This document shows positions 1 to 10,379 of a stretch of DNA of 20,000 bases, piece after piece. The stretch's first letter is position 1, and every line of letters begins with the position of its first letter. The notes under the pieces are model-generated. The model did no database searches. It saw only the letters and a program-made list of their open reading frames with translations, and was not told the DNA's origin. Source of the stretch: an uncultured virus (IMG/VR IMGVR_UViG_3300031994_000074) (lineage: Duplodnaviria > Heunggongvirae > Uroviricota > Caudoviricetes); IMG/VR virus record IMGVR_UViG_3300031994_000074; one strand, 5' to 3'. The translations under genes and the position numbers were made by a program.

Positions 1-38
1 ACGGTACGGGTTGACGCAGTTGAATTGAATTTTGCCAT
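1..38 (-). CDS. 5' end of a gene truncated by the window edge (MAKFNSTASTRT...), candidate Ro60/TROVE (Rsr) protein
   Basis: ATG at 38-36 with AAGGAGG RBS (53-47) overlapping the stop of the upstream gene. The Ro60 identity is inferred from only 12 codons (MxKFN...T) and the nearby Y-RNA-like genes. Confidence 0.5.
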   Translation of the reverse strand, partial: MAKFNSTASTRT

Positions 39-51
39 AATGGTTTCCTCC

Positions 52-786
52 TTAATAGTCGTGAATAGTCAATTTTCTTTCAATCAAATTTTCCTGTGTA
101 TCGCAAATGATATCTTTCGCCAGCTCTGCGTGAGCATCGAAATAATGCATATCTACATTCCGGATTTCATCATTTACAATTGCGGCATATTCATCAATCA
201 GTTTTTCCCATTTTTGATTTTCCGGATCTCGTTTTGCCTTTAGCGCCAGTTGCCGCTCTTCTTCTGTCATGGAAAGTATATCCACGTTAACATCAAAATA
301 CCTGTGAACCATGCAGTGCATGCGAAGAATATGAGATAATCGTTTGCCCGGATTCATGTTCCGTTTCGACAACTGATGAGCCATACCGCCGATAGCCATC
401 ATCATATGATTTGTGTCACAGCGCAGAGCATACGGGCTGCGAAATACGGGTGACAGGATATCGGCATATTTTGCTTCGACTATCCTGTTTCTGGAAGCAA
501 AGCATTCAACACTGTTCGGCGATGTCTTTTTTAAGAGATTCAGAGCAAGACGTATATCCTTGATATTGATATGCCCCAAATCATCTTCCCGTGTGGTGCT
601 GATCGGATCACGCAGCACAGATATTTCCCGCAGAGACGGAAGAACAAAGGTGAACGTGTCAAAATCGCTTGTTTCTGTACCCAACCCATAGTTCTGACTG
701 CCTACCAGCACAGTCATTATGGCATCATAATCTTTTGAGACAGCACAATGGTGGATGTACAGAGCTTCACAGATCTTATCGTCCAT
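52..786 (-). CDS. DNA polymerase beta-superfamily nucleotidyltransferase (RlaP/Nuc-transf-like)
   Basis: 244-aa ORF with GSQNYGL...SDFD (GS-x-DxD) NTase motif, LLKKTSPNSVE segment, and AAAGGAG RBS. Confidence 0.8.
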   Translation of the reverse strand: MDDKICEALYIHHCAVSKDYDAIMTVLVGSQNYGLGTETSDFDTFTFVLPSLREISVLRDPISTTREDDLGHINIKDIRLALNLLKKTSPNSVECFASRNRIVEAKYADILSPVFRSPYALRCDTNHMMMAIGGMAHQLSKRNMNPGKRLSHILRMHCMVHRYFDVNVDILSMTEEERQLALKAKRDPENQKWEKLIDEYAAIVNDEIRNVDMHYFDAHAELAKDIICDTQENLIERKLTIHDY

Positions 787-868
787 TTATGTACTCCTTT
801 CTATTTGATAATAATCGGGTGCAAACTGAAAGAACTTCAAAATTTCACATCCATTCATGTAAAAATAA

Positions 869-956
869 AGAGCATCCGCGATAATTGGCATGGTCGGGTA
901 AGCGTAAGCGAATTAAAAGTTCGATGCATCCGGCCATTGCAATACGCAAATGCTCT
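869..956 (-). ncRNA. Partial tRNA-Lys(UUU)-like RNA lacking a T-arm
   Basis: 12-bp closing stem AGAGCATTTGCG/CGCGGATGCTCT, D-arm-like TGCA-ATGGCCGGA-TGCA, anticodon arm CGAA-CTTTTAA-TTCG. No TTC T-loop. Confidence 0.45.
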
Positions 957-959
957 CAT

Positions 960-1108
960 TGGTGTCCGCGGAACGAATTGAACGTTCTCACACGAGATGC
1001 ATTACTATAGCTGCAAATCGTGTTTTCACCGCGTCCTGGATATCCTCTTTCTTCCCACACAGCGCTATATCGGTTTACTTTGGACACCCATTCTGCCTGA
1101 TCGCGGAC
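960..1108 (-). ncRNA. 149-nt tRNA-like RNA (acceptor stem + T-arm + ACCA, non-canonical interior)
   Basis: Perfect 7-bp stem GTCCGCG/CGCGGAC followed by A-CCA; T-arm GAACG-TTCAATT-CGTTC. No recognisable D or anticodon arm. Confidence 0.6.
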
Positions 1109-1114
1109 AGGTAT

Positions 1115-1286
1115 GACGCAGATAAGGATCGGAAACGGTACGTATGTGCTCTACCAACTGAGCTACCGCATGACTATTATGCTGCCACCCTTACGGTGTG
1201 GCGCAAATACGTCTGTGCAGGCGGGACTCGAACCCGCGGCCGCACGGTTTACCAGCCGAAGTAACCGATTCCTGCAATGCTGCGTC
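1115..1286 (-). ncRNA. YrlA-type Y RNA-like (permuted tRNA mimic), copy 1
   Basis: Terminal stem GACGCAG/CTGCGTC. T-arm GCGGG-TTCGAGT-CCCGC lies upstream of D-arm TAGCTCAGTTGGTAGAGC, the acceptor-like stem is closed internally, and there is no anticodon loop. Confidence 0.75.
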
Positions 1287-1289
1287 AAG

Positions 1290-1362
1290 CGCTCCGGACA
1301 GGGCTTGAACCTGTGACCATCCGCTTAACGGGCGGGCGCTCTACCAACTGAGCTACCGGAGC
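1290..1362 (-). tRNA. tRNA-Asn(GUU), C at position 33, CCA not encoded
   Basis: GCTCCGG/CCGGAGC acceptor, G73, canonical D- and T-arms, anticodon loop CCGTTAA. Confidence 0.85.
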
Positions 1363-1363
1363 A

Positions 1364-1439
1364 TGGGTGCGGGGGAGAGATTTGAACTCTCGACCTCCTG
1401 GGTATGAGCCAGGCCATCTTCCACTGATAATACCCCGCA
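1364..1439 (-). tRNA. tRNA-Met(CAU), initiator-like body
   Basis: TGCGGGG/CCCCGCA acceptor + C-CCA, anticodon arm CCTGG-CTCATAC-CCAGG, T-arm GAGAG-TTCAAAT-CTCTC. Confidence 0.85.
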
Positions 1440-1447
1440 GTATCTTG

Positions 1448-1518
1448 AGCGGATGGTGGGAATCGAACCCGCACGGCCAGTTTGGAAAACTGGCGTTCTG
1501 CCATTAAACTACACCCGC
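1448..1518 (-). tRNA. tRNA-Gly(UCC), CCA not encoded
   Basis: GCGGGTG/CATCCGC acceptor, U73, anticodon arm CCAGT-TTTCCAA-ACTGG, GGTTCGATTCC T-arm. Confidence 0.9.
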
Positions 1519-1522
1519 ATTA

Positions 1523-1662
1523 AGGGGATGCCGGAATTGAACCGGCATTTCGATCAGACCACCCGTACGCAGCGTTGCTGTCCCACTTATCGGCAGTCGC
1601 ATTCATCCATCCACATGCGCGCGCATAGCGGACTTATCGGATTACTAAGACCCTAATCCTCC
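1523..1662 (-). ncRNA. ~140-nt tRNA-like RNA with T-arm and imperfect acceptor stem
   Basis: T-arm GCCGG-TTCAATT-CCGGC followed by ATCCCCT, which pairs with GGAGGAT (one mismatch, followed by TA). Internal repeat CCGATAAGT occurs twice. Confidence 0.45.
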
Positions 1663-1668
1663 ATGTAT

Positions 1669-1779
1669 ATGCCGACCACTCGCGCTCCACCGTCCTATTC
1701 TGTCATCTTACAGGTAATAACGATTTACAGTCTCCCTGATCGTCTGACAGTCATACGCCAAAGCCTTGTTCGTCGGCAT
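1669..1779 (-). ncRNA. Putative structured RNA of unknown family
   Basis: 8-bp terminal inverted repeat ATGCCGAC/GTCGGCAT, internal CTGTCA/TGACAG pairing, located between other RNA genes. Confidence 0.35.
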
Positions 1780-1783
1780 GATT

Positions 1784-1891
1784 GCCAGTCTTTCCCGGCT
1801 GTCATTCGGTATGGCTTACGCCGTCTTTTGCCGATTGTCACGCTTCTTTGACTTTTGCGGGGTTACATTGAAGCGTAGCGCATCGCTCCCC
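1784..1891 (-). ncRNA. Putative structured RNA ending in a TGACA-GCCGG-GAAAGA-CTGGC hairpin
   Basis: Begins directly after the CCA of the 1892-2055 element. Stems ACGCTTC/GAAGCGT and TCGG/CCGA. Carries one copy of the repeated 3' hairpin motif. Confidence 0.4.
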
Positions 1892-2055
1892 TGGTGCACG
1901 GGTAAGGATTTGCACCTCACATGGAAACACAGTTATCACATGTGTGCTTTCTGTCAGCCGTTCCGATGTACCCGGCACTCCAATCAAGGGGCGTTTGTAT
2001 ATCTACAAACGCACTGGCCTATACCCGTCTGCGTCTACCTATTCCGCCACCGTGC
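1892..2055 (-). ncRNA. 164-nt tRNA-like RNA: Leu-type D-arm, 6+6 acceptor/T stems, ACCA end, large structured insert replacing the anticodon arm
   Basis: GCACGG-TGGCGGAATAGGTAGACGC...GTGAGG-TGCAAAT-CCTTAC-CCGTGC-ACCA. Insert contains the perfect hairpin GCGTTTGTA-GATA-TACAAACGC. Confidence 0.7.
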
Positions 2056-2062
2056 ATGTTGT

Positions 2063-2226
2063 GCCGGTCTTTCCCGGCTGCCAGCAGATCGTTTCCAGAC
2101 GGCCTCTTGGTTAATTCTGCACAACCGCAATTACACAGAGCCGCTTGAGGGGGATCGTTCAGGACTTCCTACCCCATCCGACTTCTTCACACCGGACAAT
2201 GCTGTTGCACCATGCGCCGTCTGAAA
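2063..2226 (-). ncRNA. Putative rod-shaped RNA with 3' GCCGG-GAAAGA-CCGGC hairpin
   Basis: 11-bp long-range stem TTTCAGACGGC (2226-2216)/GCCGTCTGGAA (2103-2093), nested TGGT/ACCA and GCAAC/GTTGT pairings. Confidence 0.4.
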
Positions 2227-2314
2227 TCGAATCGCCGGGCTTGGGGACTCGAACCCCGCTTCACATTGCCGCACGCGCCAGCGTGCAAGGTCTGGTGTGG
2301 TGTCCACGGAGAAT

Positions 2315-2690
2315 TGGTGGAGGCGACGGGATTTGAACCCGTGTCCAAATTGCGACAAATACTGAGAATGCTTACACGATAGTCAGTTTAAGGCGATGAC
2401 GCGCACGAAAGGAAGAAGAATTCCTCATGTCCACCACCTGCTTTTTTGTAGGCCTCTCATAGGCTGTCCGGCCGGAAGCAGGAAACCAGGCTTAAACGGT
2501 GCGCCATTCTATCTCTGATCCGCAGGAAGTTACCGAGTGGCAGGTCTTCCGTTTAAGAGCGAGACTGCATCAGGCAGCCTTCAGTTCGCCGTAAGAATAA
2601 TCTTCGTCAGTTCTTTGTTTTGACCCGTAAGGTGGTGTCATACCCGTGTTCTCAGTACCATTCACAACCTGTCGAAACCAATTCACCCCC
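2315..2690 (-). ncRNA. ssrA: tmRNA, tag peptide (A)DEDYSYGELKAA*
   Basis: 5' GGGGGTGAATTGGTTTCGAC; 3' GGGTTCAAATCCCGT-CGCCTCC-ACCA; G3-U70 pair; tag frame 2608-2570 ends GCT GCC TGA. Confidence 0.93.
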
Positions 2691-2906
2691 ATGTGATTGC
2701 CGGTAAACCGCATGGATGTAAACCCGGCTGCTTGCTTTTCCGTGTCGGTTGCCCCGTGGGTCGCCGTTCACCTACCGCTACACTCGGCACAAGATTTTAG
2801 CGCGTTCCTGATGATGAAGTTGTGTAGTTCTGCTCCAACGCTCGGTTTCATTTTTTTCCGTCTTTCCGGAATGCCATATGAAAGTGGTTGGCTGCAATTG
2901 TGCAGC

Positions 2907-2993
2907 TGGTGGGATGAGGTGGAGTCGAACCACCCGAGCCGAATGACAGCAGATTTACAGTCTGCACCGCTACCACTTACGGTATACCATCCC
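2907..2993 (-). tRNA. tRNA-Tyr(GUA)
   Basis: GGGATGG/TCATCCC-ACCA acceptor, anticodon arm GCAGA-CTGTAAA-TCTGC, long variable arm, GGTGG-TTCGACT-CCACC T-arm. Confidence 0.92.
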
Positions 2994-3000
2994 ATGTTTT

Positions 3001-3142
3001 GCAGACAGATAAGAATCGAAGTCGGGCTATCATTGATTTTGCTCTGCCATCTGAGCTACCTGAAACTTCGTTTCAGGATTGGAATCGAACCAATCACACA
3101 AATCTGTCCTTCGAAGTATCCGACCTCTGCAATGCTGTCTGC
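3001..3142 (-). ncRNA. YrlA-type Y RNA-like (permuted tRNA mimic), copy 2
   Basis: Terminal stem GCAGACAG/CTGTCTGC; order is T-arm ATTGG-TTCGATT-CCAAT, then closed acceptor-like hairpin CCTGAAAC-GAA-GTTTCAGG, then D-arm TAGCTCAGATGGCAGAGC. Confidence 0.78.
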
Positions 3143-3148
3143 GTGAAC

Positions 3149-3178
3149 ATAATAACACGAAGCGTGAGCAAGTGTCAA
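3149..3178 (-). promoter_or_regulatory. Sigma-A promoter of the RNA operon
   Basis: TTGACA (3178-3173), 18 nt spacer, TGn-TATTAT (3154-3149). Predicted start site falls at the 5' end of the Y-like RNA (~3142). Confidence 0.75.
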
Positions 3179-3198
3179 TACCAAATTGGTAAAAAGTA

Positions 3199-3227
3199 TT
3201 GATAAAATCTTTCTTTCATTATATAAT
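3199..3227 (+). promoter_or_regulatory. Sigma-A promoter of the small HTH gene
   Basis: TTGATA-N17-TATAAT. Confidence 0.7.
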
Positions 3228-3256
3228 TCAGGCGTGAGCGAAGAAAGGAGTGTTCA

Positions 3257-3448
3257 TTGAATCTTCCCGGGAATCTCAGAAGGATCAGAAAAGAAAGAAA
3301 CATGACCGTATACGAACTGGCAGTTCTTGTCGGAACAACCGAAGCCAGCATCAGCCGGTACGAGACAGGCAAAAGAGAACTGCCTGTAAAGATGGCGAAA
3401 AAGATCGCCGCCGTTCTTGAAACTGAATGGTGGAAACTGTATGACTGA
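3257..3448 (+). CDS. XRE-family helix-turn-helix protein
   Basis: LRRIRKERNMTVYELAVLVGTTEASISRYETGKR HTH_3 signature; TTG start with AAGGAG RBS. Confidence 0.88.
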   Translation: MNLPGNLRRIRKERNMTVYELAVLVGTTEASISRYETGKRELPVKMAKKIAAVLETEWWKLYD

Positions 3449-3478
3449 AAAAACCGCCCTGGAATTGGGCGGATTTTT
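3448..3478. terminator. Intrinsic terminator, likely bidirectional
   Basis: A6-CCGCCC-loop-GGGCGG-ATTTTT directly after the HTH stop codon. Confidence 0.7.
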
Positions 3479-3540
3479 GTTGGTCAGACCCTATTGAAAG
3501 GCGTTCAAGAGTCCTGACTCGCCTTTTTTCTTGCTTTTTT

Positions 3541-3771
3541 GTAATTAGTAGTGTTATTAGTAGAACGCAATTTTTCAAGATTTATCACGATTTATAATCA
3601 GGCGAACACAATATGAAACAACCCGCAAACCTTTACTTTTCAAGGCTTGCGGGCTGTTTTGGTGGTCTGGGTGAGAGGATTCGAACCTCCGGCCTCTTGA
3701 ACCCCATTCAAGAAGAAAACGTTGAAATATAAGGCTTCTCGGTGTTGTTTGTTATTAGTACGTTATTAGTA
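3541..3771. repeat. Integrase arm-type direct repeats GTWATTAGTA flanking the att core
   Basis: Copies at 3541-3550, 3553-3562, 3751-3760 and 3762-3771, two on each side of the core. Confidence 0.75.
3663..3712 (-). mobile_element. attP core: 3' 50 nt of tRNA-Pro(GGG)
   Basis: CTTGA-ATGGGGT-TCAAG anticodon arm, T-arm and CACCCAG-ACCA present; 5' half absent; adjacent to the integrase 3' end. Confidence 0.85.
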
Positions 3772-3792: not shown

Positions 3793-4899
3793 TTATTCGA
3801 TGGAAGTTGCCACATCGAGGAGGTCGTCCATGTCGGTGGACTGATAATGAGAGCGGGTGAAGGCGTAGTCGGTGTGACCCATGAGACCGGCTTTGGTCTT
3901 GTCGTCACCACCGGCACGTTTCAGCTTGTCGGAATAGGTGTGGCGAGCGGCGTAGGGTGTTTTGTTTTCCGCAATGCCGAGAGACTGCATCATGGGTTTG
4001 AAAATGTGTTTGTTAAAGTATTCGTGATTCATCTGTTTGAAATCTGTCCATTCCGGCGGGGCCTTTCGGTTGAATCGGTATTGGGGGAAGAGCAGGTCGG
4101 TGCCAGGAATGTACAGTCTTTCGCGGATGAGATCAAGAATCTGCGGAGGGATAATCACGATACGGTCTTTCCCGGCTTCGGTCTTGCTGCCGTTGACCAG
4201 GCATTCGATCCCTTCAATGATTCTGTAGTGTTCTTTTTTTAAGGAAAGAAATTCCGTCGGACGGAAGCCGAGGAAGCACAGGGCATAGACGTATTCCGCG
4301 TAGCGGATTTTCCCGATGGCGTCCCGGATCACGTCCACCTCTTTTTCCGTGAGCGGGTCGCGCTGGATGCTTTGACCCTTTCCGATATACAGATTGTCGG
4401 TGATGTCCTGCGCGACGTAGCCGGAATCGACGGCATACGCCCAGAGGAGTCCCGCGACGCACTTCATGTTCTGGTGCGTGCGCTTCCCGGACGGGCAGGC
4501 ATCCATGCATTCTTGCAGGTCCGTCGCGGTGATGTCGCTGATGAAACGGAGATGCAGGCTGGAGAAGTGCTGATAGGCGTATTTGTAGCAGTCCATTGTG
4601 GACGGGACGATGCGCGGGGCGTAGGCTGCTTCCCACAGATCGTAAAGTTCGTGCAGACGGATCTGCTTTTTCTTCTCCGGTCCGTGAAGGAGAAACGGGC
4701 AGTAATTGAGTGCGTCCTTTTTCGTGTGGAAGCCGCCCTTTGTGCGGTAGACGGGGATTTTGTGGGTGCGGTCGGCGGATGGTTTCCAGGCGATGACCAC
4801 AACGGCGGTCCATGTTTTCCCGCGCCGGACGGCCGTGCCGGTGCCGTTTGGACGGGCGCGGGATCGGCGGCTATGCGTATTCTGTGAAGCCCGGGTCAT
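3793..4899 (-). CDS. int: Tyrosine recombinase (phage integrase)
   Basis: GFRPTE (R), GSKTEAG (K), PYAARHTY, LMGH and SHYQ catalytic motifs; N-terminal NGTG...KGGFHTKKDA arm-binding region. Start placed at ATG 4899 with AGGAG RBS. Confidence 0.93.
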   Translation of the reverse strand: MTRASQNTHSRRSRARPNGTGTAVRRGKTWTAVVVIAWKPSADRTHKIPVYRTKGGFHTKKDALNYCPFLLHGPEKKKQIRLHELYDLWEAAYAPRIVPSTMDCYKYAYQHFSSLHLRFISDITATDLQECMDACPSGKRTHQNMKCVAGLLWAYAVDSGYVAQDITDNLYIGKGQSIQRDPLTEKEVDVIRDAIGKIRYAEYVYALCFLGFRPTEFLSLKKEHYRIIEGIECLVNGSKTEAGKDRIVIIPPQILDLIRERLYIPGTDLLFPQYRFNRKAPPEWTDFKQMNHEYFNKHIFKPMMQSLGIAENKTPYAARHTYSDKLKRAGGDDKTKAGLMGHTDYAFTRSHYQSTDMDDLLDVATSIE

Positions 4900-5086
4900 A
4901 AATTTCTCCTTTGCGGATGTGTTCCAGCTCATGCAGATAGGTGCAGGCACGCTGTTCCTGCGGCAGGCGGGCATTCAGAATAATGCACGGTTCAAAGTCG
5001 GAACCGAGACAGCAGAACCCTCGAATGTGCGTAGGCAGATTCAGCAGGACGACCGGGATCTGTTCAACATCATACGGTTTTTTCAT
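4871..5086 (-). CDS. Small ImmA/IrrE-like metallopeptidase (putative anti-repressor)
   Basis: IILNARL...YLHELEHI (HExxH); sits between repressor and integrase. Confidence 0.75.
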   Translation of the reverse strand: MKKPYDVEQIPVVLLNLPTHIRGFCCLGSDFEPCIILNARLPQEQRACTYLHELEHIRKGEIYDPGFTEYA

Positions 5087-5439
5087 TCCGGCTCCCGCTC
5101 CCTTGTGATGGCGTTGACCACGGCGATCACCGCGTCAAGGTCGTTTTCATCCATATAACAGGTGCGGTCAAAGAGCAGCCCAAGCTTCGGATTCTTATGC
5201 AGGGAATCCGCGACGCGCTTGACGAGTTCCCGGTCTGCGCCGTATTCGGAAGAGATGAGCGTGGACAGCGGCACGTTGAAGAAGTCCGCGATCTTTTCTA
5301 TCGTTTCAAAGTCCGGCTCGCGTATCCCGGCTTCGTAATTGCCGATCGTGCTTTGCCCCATATCGAGCGCTTTGGAAAGTTTCCTTTGGGAATATCCGCG
5401 GCTGGTCCGAAGCTGCTTTAACCGTTCTGCAAACGTCAT
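5083..5439 (-). CDS. Phage repressor (XRE HTH, ImmR/CI-like)
   Basis: FAERLKQLR...SQRKLS...STIGNYEAGIREP signature; divergent from the Cro-like gene; ATG 5439 with AAGGGGTG RBS. Confidence 0.9.
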   Translation of the reverse strand: MTFAERLKQLRTSRGYSQRKLSKALDMGQSTIGNYEAGIREPDFETIEKIADFFNVPLSTLISSEYGADRELVKRVADSLHKNPKLGLLFDRTCYMDENDLDAVIAVVNAITREREPE

Positions 5440-5444
5440 AATTT

Positions 5445-5547
5445 TCACCCCTTGTGAACAATATCACACAATTTGTGAAAAAGCAACTATTTTGTAATGA
5501 TTCTGTAACACATATCGCTTGCATATGCTCACAGAAAGTGATAACCT
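5445..5547. promoter_or_regulatory. Lysis/lysogeny switch: divergent promoters and three WCAC-N5-GTGA operators
   Basis: Minus strand TTGCTT(5486-5481)-N17-TATTGT; plus strand TTGCAT(5519-5524)-N17-TAACCT; operators at 5445-5457, 5466-5478 and 5529-5541. Confidence 0.7.
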
Positions 5548-5580: not shown

Positions 5581-5796
5581 GTGGACATGAAGCAGGCCGG
5601 GGAGAAGCTGAAGGAACTGCGCGGATGCAGGACGCAGACGGGCGTGGCGAGAGCAGTCGGGATTACGCCTTCCGCGCTTTCCATGTACGAAAGCGGGGAG
5701 AGGGTTCCGAGGGACGAAGTGAAGGAACGGCTTTGCGCGTACTACCAGGTGCCTGTGGCGTCGGTGTTTTATCCGGGCGCGGCAGAACAGAGTTAA
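5581..5796 (+). CDS. Cro-like XRE HTH protein
   Basis: LKELRG.RTQTGVARAVGITPSALSMYESGERVP; first gene of the rightward operon. Confidence 0.88.
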   Translation: MDMKQAGEKLKELRGCRTQTGVARAVGITPSALSMYESGERVPRDEVKERLCAYYQVPVASVFYPGAAEQS

Positions 5797-8834: not shown

Positions 8835-9568
8835 TTGATCGAACCAGGATTTTACAACATGGACTGTATGGAAGCCATGAAGCAGTTCCCGGAAAAATAC
8901 TTTGATCTGGCAGTAGTTGATCCCCCTTATGGAATCAACGTGACCGGCCGACATAAAGCCGGGAAGCTTGTTGGGGGGGGTATAGGCCGTTTGGCGGAGC
9001 AAAGTATTACCATACTTGGCAAGTCGAAAAAAAGAGTGGCTTCCCTAAACCCTATCACCCCTTTGACGATACGACCCCGCCGGACAAAGGGTACTTTGAA
9101 GAGTTGATGCGTGTCAGCAAGCATCAGATTATCTGGGGCGGAAATTTCTTTCTTGAATACTTGGGAAACACAAGCCGGATGATTGTATGGGACAAAAAGC
9201 GGCGCGGCATGGATCAGGCAGATTGCGAAATCGCGTGGACAAGCCTTCCAGGGCAGAATCGAATCTTTGAATACAGATGGAACGGGATGCTGCAAGGTGA
9301 CATGAAAAATAAAGAAAACCGCATTCATCCTACGCAGAAACCTGTTGCATTGTATCAGTGGATTCTGGAGCAGTTCGCAAAGAGCGGAGACAAAATACTT
9401 GATACACATGTTGGGAGCGCATCAAGCCTGATTGCATGTCACCGGGCCGGACTGAAATATTGGGGATTTGAAATTGACAAGTATTATTACAGCATTGCTC
9501 TTGAAAGGTTGAACAGAGAAAAAGCACAAGTGAACATGATGGAGTTGTTAAAAGATGGTGAAATGTGA
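8835..9568 (+). CDS. N4/N6 DNA methyltransferase split by a -1 frameshift (G8 tract 8973-8980)
   Basis: DPPY motif in 8835-9107; HPTQKP and LDTHVGSASS in 9104-9568. The second frame is open from the G tract onward. Confidence 0.8.
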
Positions 9569-10379
9569 ATTATACAACGATTCGTTTCAGAATTGGAAAT
9601 GTTATCCGATTCAGAAAGCACAGTTGATTATTGCAGATATTCCGTACAACCTTGGCGATGCAGCCTACGGAAGCAATCCACAGTGGTACATTGACGGGGA
9701 TAATAAGAACGGTGAAAGCGAATATGCAAAAGCAACCTTCTTCACAAGCGATGGGTATTTCCGAATTAGTGAATACTTTATGTTCTGTTCAAGGCTGATG
9801 AAACCAGAGCCGAAGCAAGGCAAAGGCGGTGCCCCATGCATGATTGTGTTTTGCGCATTTCAGCAACAGGCAGATGTGATTAAATGGGCTGCTGACGCTG
9901 GATTCGGAAAATATATCCCGCTGGTGTTTATCAAGAACTACAGTCCGCAGGTGCTAAAGGCGAACATGAAAATCGTTGGAGCAACAGAACATGCACTCGT
10001 TCTGTACCGTGACAGACTTCCGAAATTCAACAACGACGGTCGGATGATTTTCAACTGGATGGAATGGCAGCGGGACGGGAAAGAGATTCCGAAACTGCAC
10101 ACAACGCAGAAGCCTGTGAACCTGTTAAAAAGGCTTATCGGAATCTTTACAGATGTCGGCGACGTGGTGATTGATCCTGTCGCCGGTAGCGGATCAACAC
10201 TGAGAGCTGCGCGTGAAATGGGTCGGAACAGCTATGGGTTTGAAATAGACAGGAAATTTTACCGAGAAGCCTGTGAAAAAATGCTGAATCCGGACGTAAT
10301 CGGTCAGACGACGATCGAAGATGTTTTGATGGAACAGAAACGTTATGAGCAGATGAGACTTGCGGGGGTGAGCGAATGA
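9555..10379 (+). CDS. N4/N6 DNA methyltransferase (beta class)
   Basis: IIADIPY, HTTQKP, VIDPVAGSGSTL and GFEID motifs. Confidence 0.9.
   Translation: MVKCELYNDSFQNWKCYPIQKAQLIIADIPYNLGDAAYGSNPQWYIDGDNKNGESEYAKATFFTSDGYFRISEYFMFCSRLMKPEPKQGKGGAPCMIVFCAFQQQADVIKWAADAGFGKYIPLVFIKNYSPQVLKANMKIVGATEHALVLYRDRLPKFNNDGRMIFNWMEWQRDGKEIPKLHTTQKPVNLLKRLIGIFTDVGDVVIDPVAGSGSTLRAAREMGRNSYGFEIDRKFYREACEKMLNPDVIGQTTIEDVLMEQKRYEQMRLAGVSE

Follow-up and report, generated by a model that had tools for sequence, protein, structure and literature searches.

The 20,000-nucleotide stretch of DNA analyzed here (IMG/VR record IMGVR_UViG_3300031994_000074, an uncultured member of Caudoviricetes; the whole stretch is called the window below) raises the question of what a temperate phage does with an operon made largely of RNA genes. 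On its minus strand, a promoter is followed by 2.3 kb without conserved open reading frames (ORFs), filled with RNA genes, then by a gene of the RlaP nucleotidyltransferase family and, at the very end of the window, by the start of a probable Ro60 gene. The RNA stretch contains four tRNAs, a full transfer-messenger RNA (tmRNA), three Y RNAs (two resembling YrlA and one short) and at least five other structured RNAs. About 2.3 kb of tightly packed minus-strand RNA elements had been proposed in a sequence-only reading of this DNA, and that parts list was borne out by ARAGORN, Rfam, a clade-specific covariance model, folds and covariation. RNA care modules of this kind are known, and this one is unusually rich; what appears to be new is the combination, together with three unclassified RNAs termed E5, E6 and E10. 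Listed in the direction of transcription, the features are as follows, where R1 and R2 denote covariance models for E5 and the Y RNAs, respectively, R2 having been built from an alignment of Y RNAs of the window and of the related viral contigs L005 and L008.

3149-3178, minus strand: sigma-70-type promoter of the RNA operon (TTGACA, 18-nt spacer, TG extension, TATTAT; 11 of 12 consensus matches).
3001-3142, minus strand: Y RNA 1 (Y1), YrlA-like (Rfam YrlA 35 bits at 3013-3114; R2 108.7 bits; stem covariation).
2907-2993, minus strand: tRNA-Tyr (GTA), class II, with encoded CCA (ARAGORN; Rfam tRNA 31 bits against a cut-off of 29).
2691-2906, minus strand: E3, structured spacer (blastn map and fold; compensatory changes relative to L005 identified by eye).
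2315-2690, minus strand: tmRNA with the tag DEDYSYGELKAA (ARAGORN; Rfam RF00023 97.5 bits against a cut-off of 47).
2061-2311, minus strand: E5, conserved structured RNA (R1 131.2 bits; covariation).
1892-2055, minus strand: E6, tRNA-Leu-like shell with an insert (fold; five family members with a covarying acceptor stem).
1783-1892, minus strand: E7a, weak and divergent E5-like element ending in the same GAAAGA hairpin (R1 19.2 bits, E 0.0066).
1668-1778, minus strand: E7b, rod-like hairpin (homologue in contig L006, 78.6% identity over 103 nt; 28 predicted pairs, 4 of them compensatory).
About 1519-1660, minus strand: E7c, possible tRNA-like RNA (T arm from a hairpin scan; acceptor pairs by eye).
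1447-1518, minus strand: tRNA-Gly (TCC) (ARAGORN; Rfam 62.2 bits).
1364-1439, minus strand: tRNA-Met (CAT) (ARAGORN; Rfam 51.9 bits).
1289-1362, minus strand: tRNA-Asn (GTT) (ARAGORN; Rfam 65.3 bits).
1115-1286, minus strand: Y RNA 2 (Y2), YrlA-like, with a long acceptor-like insert (Rfam YrlA 31.7 bits at 1116-1268; R2 121 bits).
960-1108, minus strand: E10, cloverleaf-like RNA (fold z-score -3.84; covariation in three sequences).
861-955, minus strand: Y RNA 3 (Y3), short, with its Y RNA at 955-870 (R2 24.3 bits at 873-951, E 2e-4).
52-786, minus strand: RlaP-family Pol-beta nucleotidyltransferase, 244 aa (Pfam PF10127 30.8 bits against a cut-off of 23; phrog_388).
1-37, minus strand: start of a probable Ro60 (TROVE) gene, 12 codons (MAKFNSTASTRT), cut by the window end.

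Four tRNAs and a tmRNA had been listed from the letters, and ARAGORN and Rfam concurred on each of the five. The tmRNA scores above the Rfam gathering threshold and has a tag frame, a G3-U70 pair (taken from the alignment), a T arm and a CCA end. Its tag is identical in L005 and in a further related contig, L004. Whereas tmRNA tags commonly end in ...ALAA, the phage tag ends in ...LKAA. Between tRNA-Tyr and the tmRNA, E3 consists of a hairpin following the tRNA, a sub-element (2854-2769) kept in L005 and a conserved tmRNA leader (2737-2691).

The two elements earlier described as permuted tRNA mimics both exist and are YrlA-like, with full-length but sub-threshold Rfam matches and high R2 scores. 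Aligned with those of L005 and L008, the Y RNAs share a common design: a 7-8-bp terminal stem, an invariant ATTGCA opposite TTATC, a second 7-bp stem and GGATACTTCG, after which the long Y RNAs add a T arm, a closed acceptor-like hairpin and a D arm. In Y1, the internal loop between the terminal and second stems reads CATTGCAG / TTCTTATC. The order of T arm, closed acceptor-like stem and D arm was confirmed in both Y1 and Y2 by the Rfam alignment and by direct reading. The two end stems, which flank the invariant ATTGCA and TTATC, comprise 14 pairs, 10 of them compensatory. Over the whole alignment of eight sequences, 95.9% of the cells were paired, as opposed to 70.7% after shuffling and at most 49% when partners were slid, and 14 of 19 pairs displayed compensatory changes. 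The window Y RNAs differ from Rfam YrlA in having conserved motifs of their own (YATTGCAG, GGATACTTCG and CGATTCTTATC). The conserved stem and loop are the predicted Ro60 binding site. In genomes of related Clostridia, R2 identified one to nine RNAs of the same Y type directly upstream of Ro60 at 30 of 31 loci.

The sequence-only reading also listed further hairpin RNAs. Additional structured RNAs are indeed present, but one element taken for a plain hairpin (955-870) is the short Y RNA, Y3. It lacks the tRNA-like domain and so resembles YrlB. Its closing stem of 11 bp is followed by the U-tract CTTTATTTTT, and Y3 probably doubles as a terminator or attenuator of the operon. Y3 is 92% identical in L008 and the related contig L002, compared with 69% for the neighboring RlaP coding DNA. 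Upstream of the Ro60 start at position 37, the distance is about 0.83 kb for Y3 and about 1.08 kb for Y2.

The nucleotidyltransferase assignment made from the letters held as well. The predicted GS-x-DxD nucleotidyltransferase matches Pfam RlaP and carries the catalytic motif G29-S30...D41-x-D43, which is invariant in three aligned sequences; sequence and profile searches of RlaP against solved structures returned nothing useful. The probable Ro60 gene starts 14 nt past the RlaP stop, with GGAGG in the gap. An exact 38-mer from the left end of the window had no match in the viral contigs, and the relatives L004 and L005 were used instead. The probable Ro60 gained support from L004, the DNA of which is 85% identical over window positions 1145-1: the 12 residues encoded in the window are identical to the first 12 of a 477-aa L004 protein (2111-3544) that matches TROVE (124.2 bits) and vWA_Ro60 (42.8 bits). 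Rumen Clostridia bins (Ruminococcus, Acutalibacteraceae and Oscillospiraceae) contain Ro60 relatives with 59-68% identity.

Among the new elements, E5 is the best supported and belongs to an unclassified RNA family that shows strong covariation and is present in at least 26 viral contigs. Its 5' end lies 3 nt after the CCA of the tmRNA. It opens with CUCCGUGGACAC, continues with an insert containing T-loop hairpins and a core (about 110 nt) whose loop UAGGAAGUCCUGAACGA is invariant, and closes with the 3' hairpin CAGCCGGGAAAGACCGGCA just before E6. In the first 10 examples, E5 always followed a tRNA-like or tmRNA 3' end. For these 10 sequences, 94.1% of the cells were paired, compared with 86.0% after shuffling, and six pairs were compensatory. 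A 17-mer scan of the viral contigs, which replaced a 15-mer scan with mostly chance matches, yielded 28 loci; 26 of them had a full-length R1 match (46.6-134.5 bits) and two were chance. ARAGORN placed a tRNA within 700 nt at 15 of the 28 loci, and the 5' dodecamer, defined by a strict pattern, was present at 15 of 28. With 32 distinct sequences, 18 of 24 pairs were compensatory and pairing was 95.1% versus 77.3%, in an alignment that was fitted to the model and leans towards the R1 structure.

No family accounts for E5 on the minus strand (2311-2061) in an Rfam 15 cmscan at E <=5, and nothing there reaches a gathering score. A weak tmRNA_permuted match at 2033-2346 (23 bits against a cut-off of 47, E 0.055, partial model span) overlaps E5. 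Since it runs into 2315-2346, the adjacent 3' end of the tmRNA, we read it as spill-over from that end. Rfam scans at E 0.01 of the E5 homologues in L005, L004 and the sources of contigs L001-L003 gave no match, nor did E5 match anything in isolated phages. R1 found no E5 in 156 cellular genomes (5 host-like genomes and 151 sampled from one order, with strict filters). Hammerhead, HDV-like and hatchet ribozymes and RNase P-like RNA were considered as identities for E5; no Rfam model supports any of them, and we make no such claim. A hairpin of the form CAGCC(G/C)GGAAAGAC(C/G)GGCA, found at 1777-1795 and 2062-2080 and in contigs L118 and L124, lies about 5 nt before tRNA-like 5' ends and is not confined to full copies of E5; it could be a signal in its own right, for processing or as a spacer.

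E6 and E10 have tRNA-like folds with inserts in place of the anticodon arm. The E6 shell consists of an acceptor stem, a D arm (TGGCGGAATAGGTAGACGC), a T arm (GTGAGGTGCAAATCCTTAC) and A73-CCA, and its anticodon and variable arms are replaced by about 100 nt of other structure. Four further family members (one in L001, two in L010 and one in L137) keep the shell with covarying acceptor stems; a U-C mismatch at 7:66 is common to the family, and the insert varies from about 60 to 190 nt. ARAGORN made no call in E6, and Rfam had no match in 1892-2032, the first 23 bases (2033-2055) lying under the weak tmRNA_permuted match. An intron-containing tRNA-Leu was rejected as its identity, as no anticodon-stem halves that would flank an intron were found. 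The cloverleaf of E10 combines an acceptor stem of 7 bp with an oversized D region, a long anticodon-like arm and a T arm, and it ends in ACCA. With its L005 and L008 homologues, 8 of 34 predicted pairs are compensatory, two of them in the acceptor stem. E7c, a single sequence for which no homologue was found, has a 7-bp T arm (1548-1528) and six of seven acceptor pairs, without CCA. Neither ARAGORN nor the Rfam tRNA model calls E6, E10 or E7c a canonical tRNA. Together with a T-loop hairpin in E5, these three correspond to the non-canonical tRNA-like RNAs listed earlier, with E10 backed by covariation, E6 by its five members and E7c by a single sequence read by eye. T-arm-like hairpins are concentrated in the same region: 10 of the 13 on the window minus strand fall in 860-3150, and 4 of these 10 lie outside any called tRNA, tmRNA or Y RNA.

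The DNA to the right of the operon bears on its control and on whether it belongs to the phage; the following features were found there.

3199-3227, plus strand: divergent promoter (11 of 12 matches), serving the HTH_3 gene.
3257-3448, plus strand: HTH_3/XRE regulator of 63 aa (Pfam HTH_3 51.6 bits; PHROG transcriptional regulators).
3454-3472: bidirectional terminator after the HTH_3 gene.
3541-3771: attP, a tRNA 3'-end fragment (about 3706-3660) flanked by paired arm-type repeats.
3793-4974, minus strand: tyrosine integrase (Pfam Phage_integrase; phrog_1 135 bits).
5083-5448, minus strand: CI-like HTH repressor (PHROG and Pfam scans).
Roughly 5589-5796, inside ORF 5581-5796, plus strand: Cro-like HTH gene of the early region.

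A single near-consensus promoter with a TG extension (3178-3149) lies ahead of the RNA array, as first proposed. The small regulator beside it, left unplaced in that proposal, is encoded on the plus strand and is divergent from the operon. Inside the promoter spacer (3169-3154) is the 16-mer GCTCACGCTTCGTGTT, which recurs with two changes at 5829-5814, downstream of the small Cro-like gene; the two copies share the form GCTCACGCT(T/A)(C/T)GTGTT. The 8-mer core of this box is also found at 3239-3232, upstream of the HTH_3 gene. The recurrence suggests a shared operator for repressor control of the RNA operon, and the promoter is probably controlled by the divergent HTH regulator, by the phage repressor or by both. 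One-mismatch matches to the box numbered 30 compared with 18.6 expected, a count reached in 3 of 200 shuffles; statistically, the signal is weak.

The 10-mer GTTATTAGTA occurs in pairs on both sides of the att core (3541-3562 and 3751-3771), and this repeat-core-repeat arrangement reads as the layout of an un-integrated attP. The same layout is found in L005 with a different tRNA-like core. There, the order is integrase, arm repeats, core, arm repeats, HTH gene, promoter, Y RNA, tmRNA, E5, tRNA, Y RNA, tRNA, short Y RNA, E10, short Y RNA, RlaP and Ro60. Since host DNA at two different integration sites would not be alike, the RNA array travels with the phage. The plus strand of the window encodes DNA methyltransferases, an exonuclease VIII-like protein, a single-stranded DNA-binding protein (SSB), a Holliday-junction resolvase, a helicase and a primase (PHROG and Pfam), and by this gene content the window is the early region of a temperate phage. 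Because PHROG and Pfam results over the 20 kb include no structural genes, the window may come from a satellite rather than from a full phage. Three adjacent plus-strand ORFs in 8835-10379 (8835-9107, 9104-9568 and 9555-10379) all match DNA methyltransferase PHROGs, and the first two resemble a single methyltransferase gene split in two. The public sequencing runs that contain the window nearly in full are sheep-gut metagenomes, from which it may originate. A close relative is present in another sheep-gut sample, in pieces with 2-12 differences per 250-560 nt. Against isolated phages, megablast of the window returned only a 67-nt tRNA-like match.

Conservation in related phage contigs, on which the original proposal depended, was found: the module is kept in L004 and L005 and in L002 and L008. 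In L004, L005 and L008, RlaP is preceded by a tmRNA, tRNAs and Y RNAs. The only contigs in which Ro60 was seen to follow RlaP were L004, L005 and L002, to which the window is added by extension. Because L004 is nearly identical to L005, and L002 is similar to L008, the coupling amounts to about three rumen phage lineages. The tRNA sets vary: Tyr, Gly, Met and Asn in the window, Asn and Gln in L005, and Met, Asn and Trp in L008. L001 and L010 have RlaP with an E6-type RNA and tRNAs.

Several of these contigs hold arrangements of their own. In L008 (340-1480) the array is denser, with tmRNA, tRNA-Met, Y RNA, tRNA-Asn, Y RNA, tRNA-Trp and two Y RNAs, after which come a homologue of E10, an RNA of 80 nt with an acceptor stem and a terminal ACCA (1304-1383), a short Y RNA and RlaP. 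L001 (7073-10004; the same contig as L009) has tRNAs, then an Rnl-type RNA ligase (PHA02142 OB fold and RNA_ligase) and a 571-aa protein with a weak Pfam RdRP match (PF05183, 25.7 bits). In L137 (1438-4349), binned as Bacteroidales and probably a phage contig placed in a genome bin, 13 tRNAs precede Ro60, together with about eight Y RNA hits, one RNA of the E6 type and a weak match to E5.

What might these parts do together? More than 250 bacteria and phages encode Y RNAs next to Ro60; these RNAs mimic tRNA, and in Deinococcus a Y RNA tethers Ro60 to PNPase (PMC4201824). RlaP extends damaged RNA at its 3'-OH by one or two nucleoside monophosphates, an activity known from Pseudomonas enzymes only, and can make a tRNA chargeable again after repair (bioRxiv 10.64898/2025.12.29.696909). 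RlaP and TROVE proteins belong to the RNA-repair repertoires of jumbo phages (PMC7824862), tmRNA genes are found within the tRNA arrays of mycobacteriophages (PMC5966550), and phage tRNAs evade tRNA-cleaving defenses (PMC10264068, PMC11555353, PMC11464382, PMC13096335, PMC12851939).

Starting from the parts, their order, their conservation and their location on a phage, all of which were observed directly, we lean slightly towards the view that the operon sustains translation under RNA damage, whether in the course of infection or in a lysogen. The more specific proposal of the sequence-only reading, an integrated repair, rescue and decoy module directed against tRNA-targeting defenses, is plausible in view of published work on RlaP, on Ro60 with Y RNAs and on phage tRNAs. 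In the translation-maintenance reading, the strong sigma-70 promoter would drive a single long non-coding transcript of an accessory operon beside attP. Because tRNA-shaped units punctuate the transcript, we infer that host tRNA-processing enzymes would cut it into separate RNAs, with RNase P acting at 5' ends and 3' trimming at acceptor ends. The products would be the four tRNAs, a tmRNA of alanine identity, three Y RNAs, E5 and tRNA-scaffolded RNAs (E6, E10 and perhaps E7c). With a U-tract closing the last Y RNA, expression of RlaP and Ro60 would rely on read-through or on a weak promoter of their own. By analogy with other family members, Ro60 would bind the conserved stem and loop of the Y RNAs; their tRNA-like domain would recruit a partner, and the particle may handle misfolded or damaged structured RNA. 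RlaP would extend the 3' ends of damaged RNA by one or two nucleotides, cleaved host tRNAs would be replaced by the extra ones from the operon, and the tmRNA, acting with host SmpB, would free stalled ribosomes.

A number of observations weigh against this reading. Neither Y1 nor Y2 reaches the gathering score of YrlA (RF02553, 69 bits), though both cover model positions 1-114. Within the 20-kb window there is no RNA ligase, SmpB, PNPase or other repair partner, and no nuclease target; beyond Ro60, L004 has a single 141-aa ORF without assignment. Two other contigs with RlaP (L006 and L007, 57-58% identity) lack Ro60, tRNAs and other partners. At none of the 31 Ro60 loci in Clostridia genomes did RlaP occur within 6 kb of Ro60; there was likewise no tmRNA at these loci, and a tRNA lay within 1 kb upstream of Ro60 in 7 of them. 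As for expression, sheep-gut RNA-library contigs are letter-identical to window positions 2047-2179, 2151-2301 and 2377-2740, and one bridges the E5-E6 junction, which we take as a weak hint that the RNA operon is expressed. These data are assembled contigs, which prove neither transcription nor strand nor processing and may reflect DNA carry-over. The three RNA-library runs had no contigs over 3007-3507 (including 3007-3173, in Y1) or 3842-5000 and single bins of about 1-fold depth in 1-1002; such gaps are uninformative because the data are assembled contigs passed through a record-dropping filter. Apparent joints at 1922/2031 were rejected as splicing, as they come from tRNAs of other organisms with the same 21-22-nt ends as E6.

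The operon could instead be a lysogenic-conversion (moron) module, expressed from the prophage and aiding the rumen host under stress, in the manner of cellular Ro60 and Y RNA systems, rather than serving as a weapon of lytic growth. Its location beside attP at the end of the prophage, a sigma-70 promoter and a terminator of its own and a dedicated small regulator all fit such a role, as does the normal occurrence of Ro60 with Y RNA arrays in the chromosomes of related Clostridia; the exact-match contigs of the gut RNA library point weakly the same way. However, the promoter-spacer box that recurs near the phage early region would fit repression in the lysogen, and a need for additional tRNAs and a tmRNA is more characteristic of the lytic phase (in part after PMC5966550). 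We regard a moron as unlikely.

An account without any functional coupling holds that recombining tRNA-like genes have piled up at a permissive spot beside attP as independent or decaying copies. The differing tRNA content of the window, L005 and L008 counts in its favor, and E5 and E6 do occur in tRNA arrays of contigs with no Ro60 nearby; E7a looks like a weak, degenerate copy of E5. A pile-up would not be expected, however, to keep the order Y-tmRNA-E5-...-Y-E10-shortY-RlaP-Ro60 in L005, to conserve the short Y RNA before RlaP better than the adjoining coding DNA, or to be framed by one promoter and one terminator, and we consider it improbable. That the array is host chromosome beside an integrated prophage is suggested by its position outside int and beyond the att core and by the frequent integration of prophages beside tRNA and tmRNA genes, and is highly improbable given the arm-type repeats on both sides of the core, the alike flanks of a differing core in L005, the membership of L002 and L003 in a viral-contig collection, and the presence of E5 in at least 26 viral contigs and none of the 156 cellular genomes searched.

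A further idea, held only tentatively, is that tRNA-shaped shells and tRNA-flanked spacers are a phage strategy, not encountered in the literature covered, for producing a set of stable non-coding RNAs, including particular roles for E5, E6/E10 and the short Y RNA. E5 would be a new phage-specific class of functional RNA excised from tRNA arrays, and its invariant 16-17-nt loop and 5' dodecamer would recognize a conserved target of host or phage origin. As natural tRNA scaffolds, E6 and E10 would serve as decoys or carry cargo, and E6, given its tRNA-Leu-like shell and A73-CCA, may still be charged. The short Y RNA before RlaP and Ro60 could be an attenuator that senses Ro60 and thereby adjusts the amounts of these two proteins. 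Similar systems are the tRNA scaffolds engineered for RNA expression and the tRNA-flanked stable RNAs of the phage T4 tRNA clusters. In likeness to these, E6 and E10 keep an acceptor stem and T arm (E6 also a D arm) and have the anticodon region replaced, and E5 is bracketed by tRNA-like units that would define its ends; the difference is that the RNAs here are natural, conserved and found in uncultured phages.

The closest cellular likeness is the rsr-yrlBA-rtcBA locus of Salmonella Typhimurium (RF02553; Chen et al. 2014, PMC4201824), which also places Y RNAs beside a Ro60 gene in an RNA-repair neighborhood and has at least one Y RNA with a T arm, closed acceptor-like stem and D arm, along with a shorter paralogue. 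The window module differs in being phage-borne, in interleaving its Y RNAs with tRNAs, a tmRNA and other RNAs, and in its partner enzyme, which is RlaP; no RtcB or RtcA was seen. The arrays of rumen and gut Clostridia (L134-L164) have the same type of Y RNA (R2 up to 101 bits), oriented directly upstream of Ro60, but no clear E5, the best R1 hit being weak (L137, 14.8 bits, E 0.094).

Among phages, mycobacteriophages (PMC5966550), actinophages and jumbo phages (PMC7824862) share the tRNA sets, the tmRNA and often a Ro60 homologue, and RlaP is common in jumbo phages with RNA ligases (PMC7824862). Unlike jumbo phages with their large genomes, the integrase-bearing temperate rumen phage packs all of this into a promoter-to-terminator unit of about 3.2 kb. 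The operon had been called unusual for a temperate phage, which overstates the case: Ro60 homologues occur in 367 isolated-phage records (all below 60% identity, and at most 33.5% among the matches listed), and L005 repeats the layout of integrase, attP and operon. Phage Ro60 with Y RNAs, phage tmRNAs and RlaP have each been described already. The combined operon was not found described in the literature covered, which did not extend to the supplementary tables of PMC4201824 on phage YrlA RNAs, and a search for phage-encoded tmRNA together with Y RNA returned nothing relevant.

Ro60 and Y RNAs are conserved from bacteria to humans, and their role in bacteria is only partly known. Here, a compact and clonable operon joins them to a tmRNA, tRNAs and RNA-end repair, so that cooperation of these systems under RNA damage, such as that inflicted by the tRNA-cleaving defense systems described in recent years, becomes testable. 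E5, E6 and E10 are of interest as candidate RNA classes independently of the question of Ro60.

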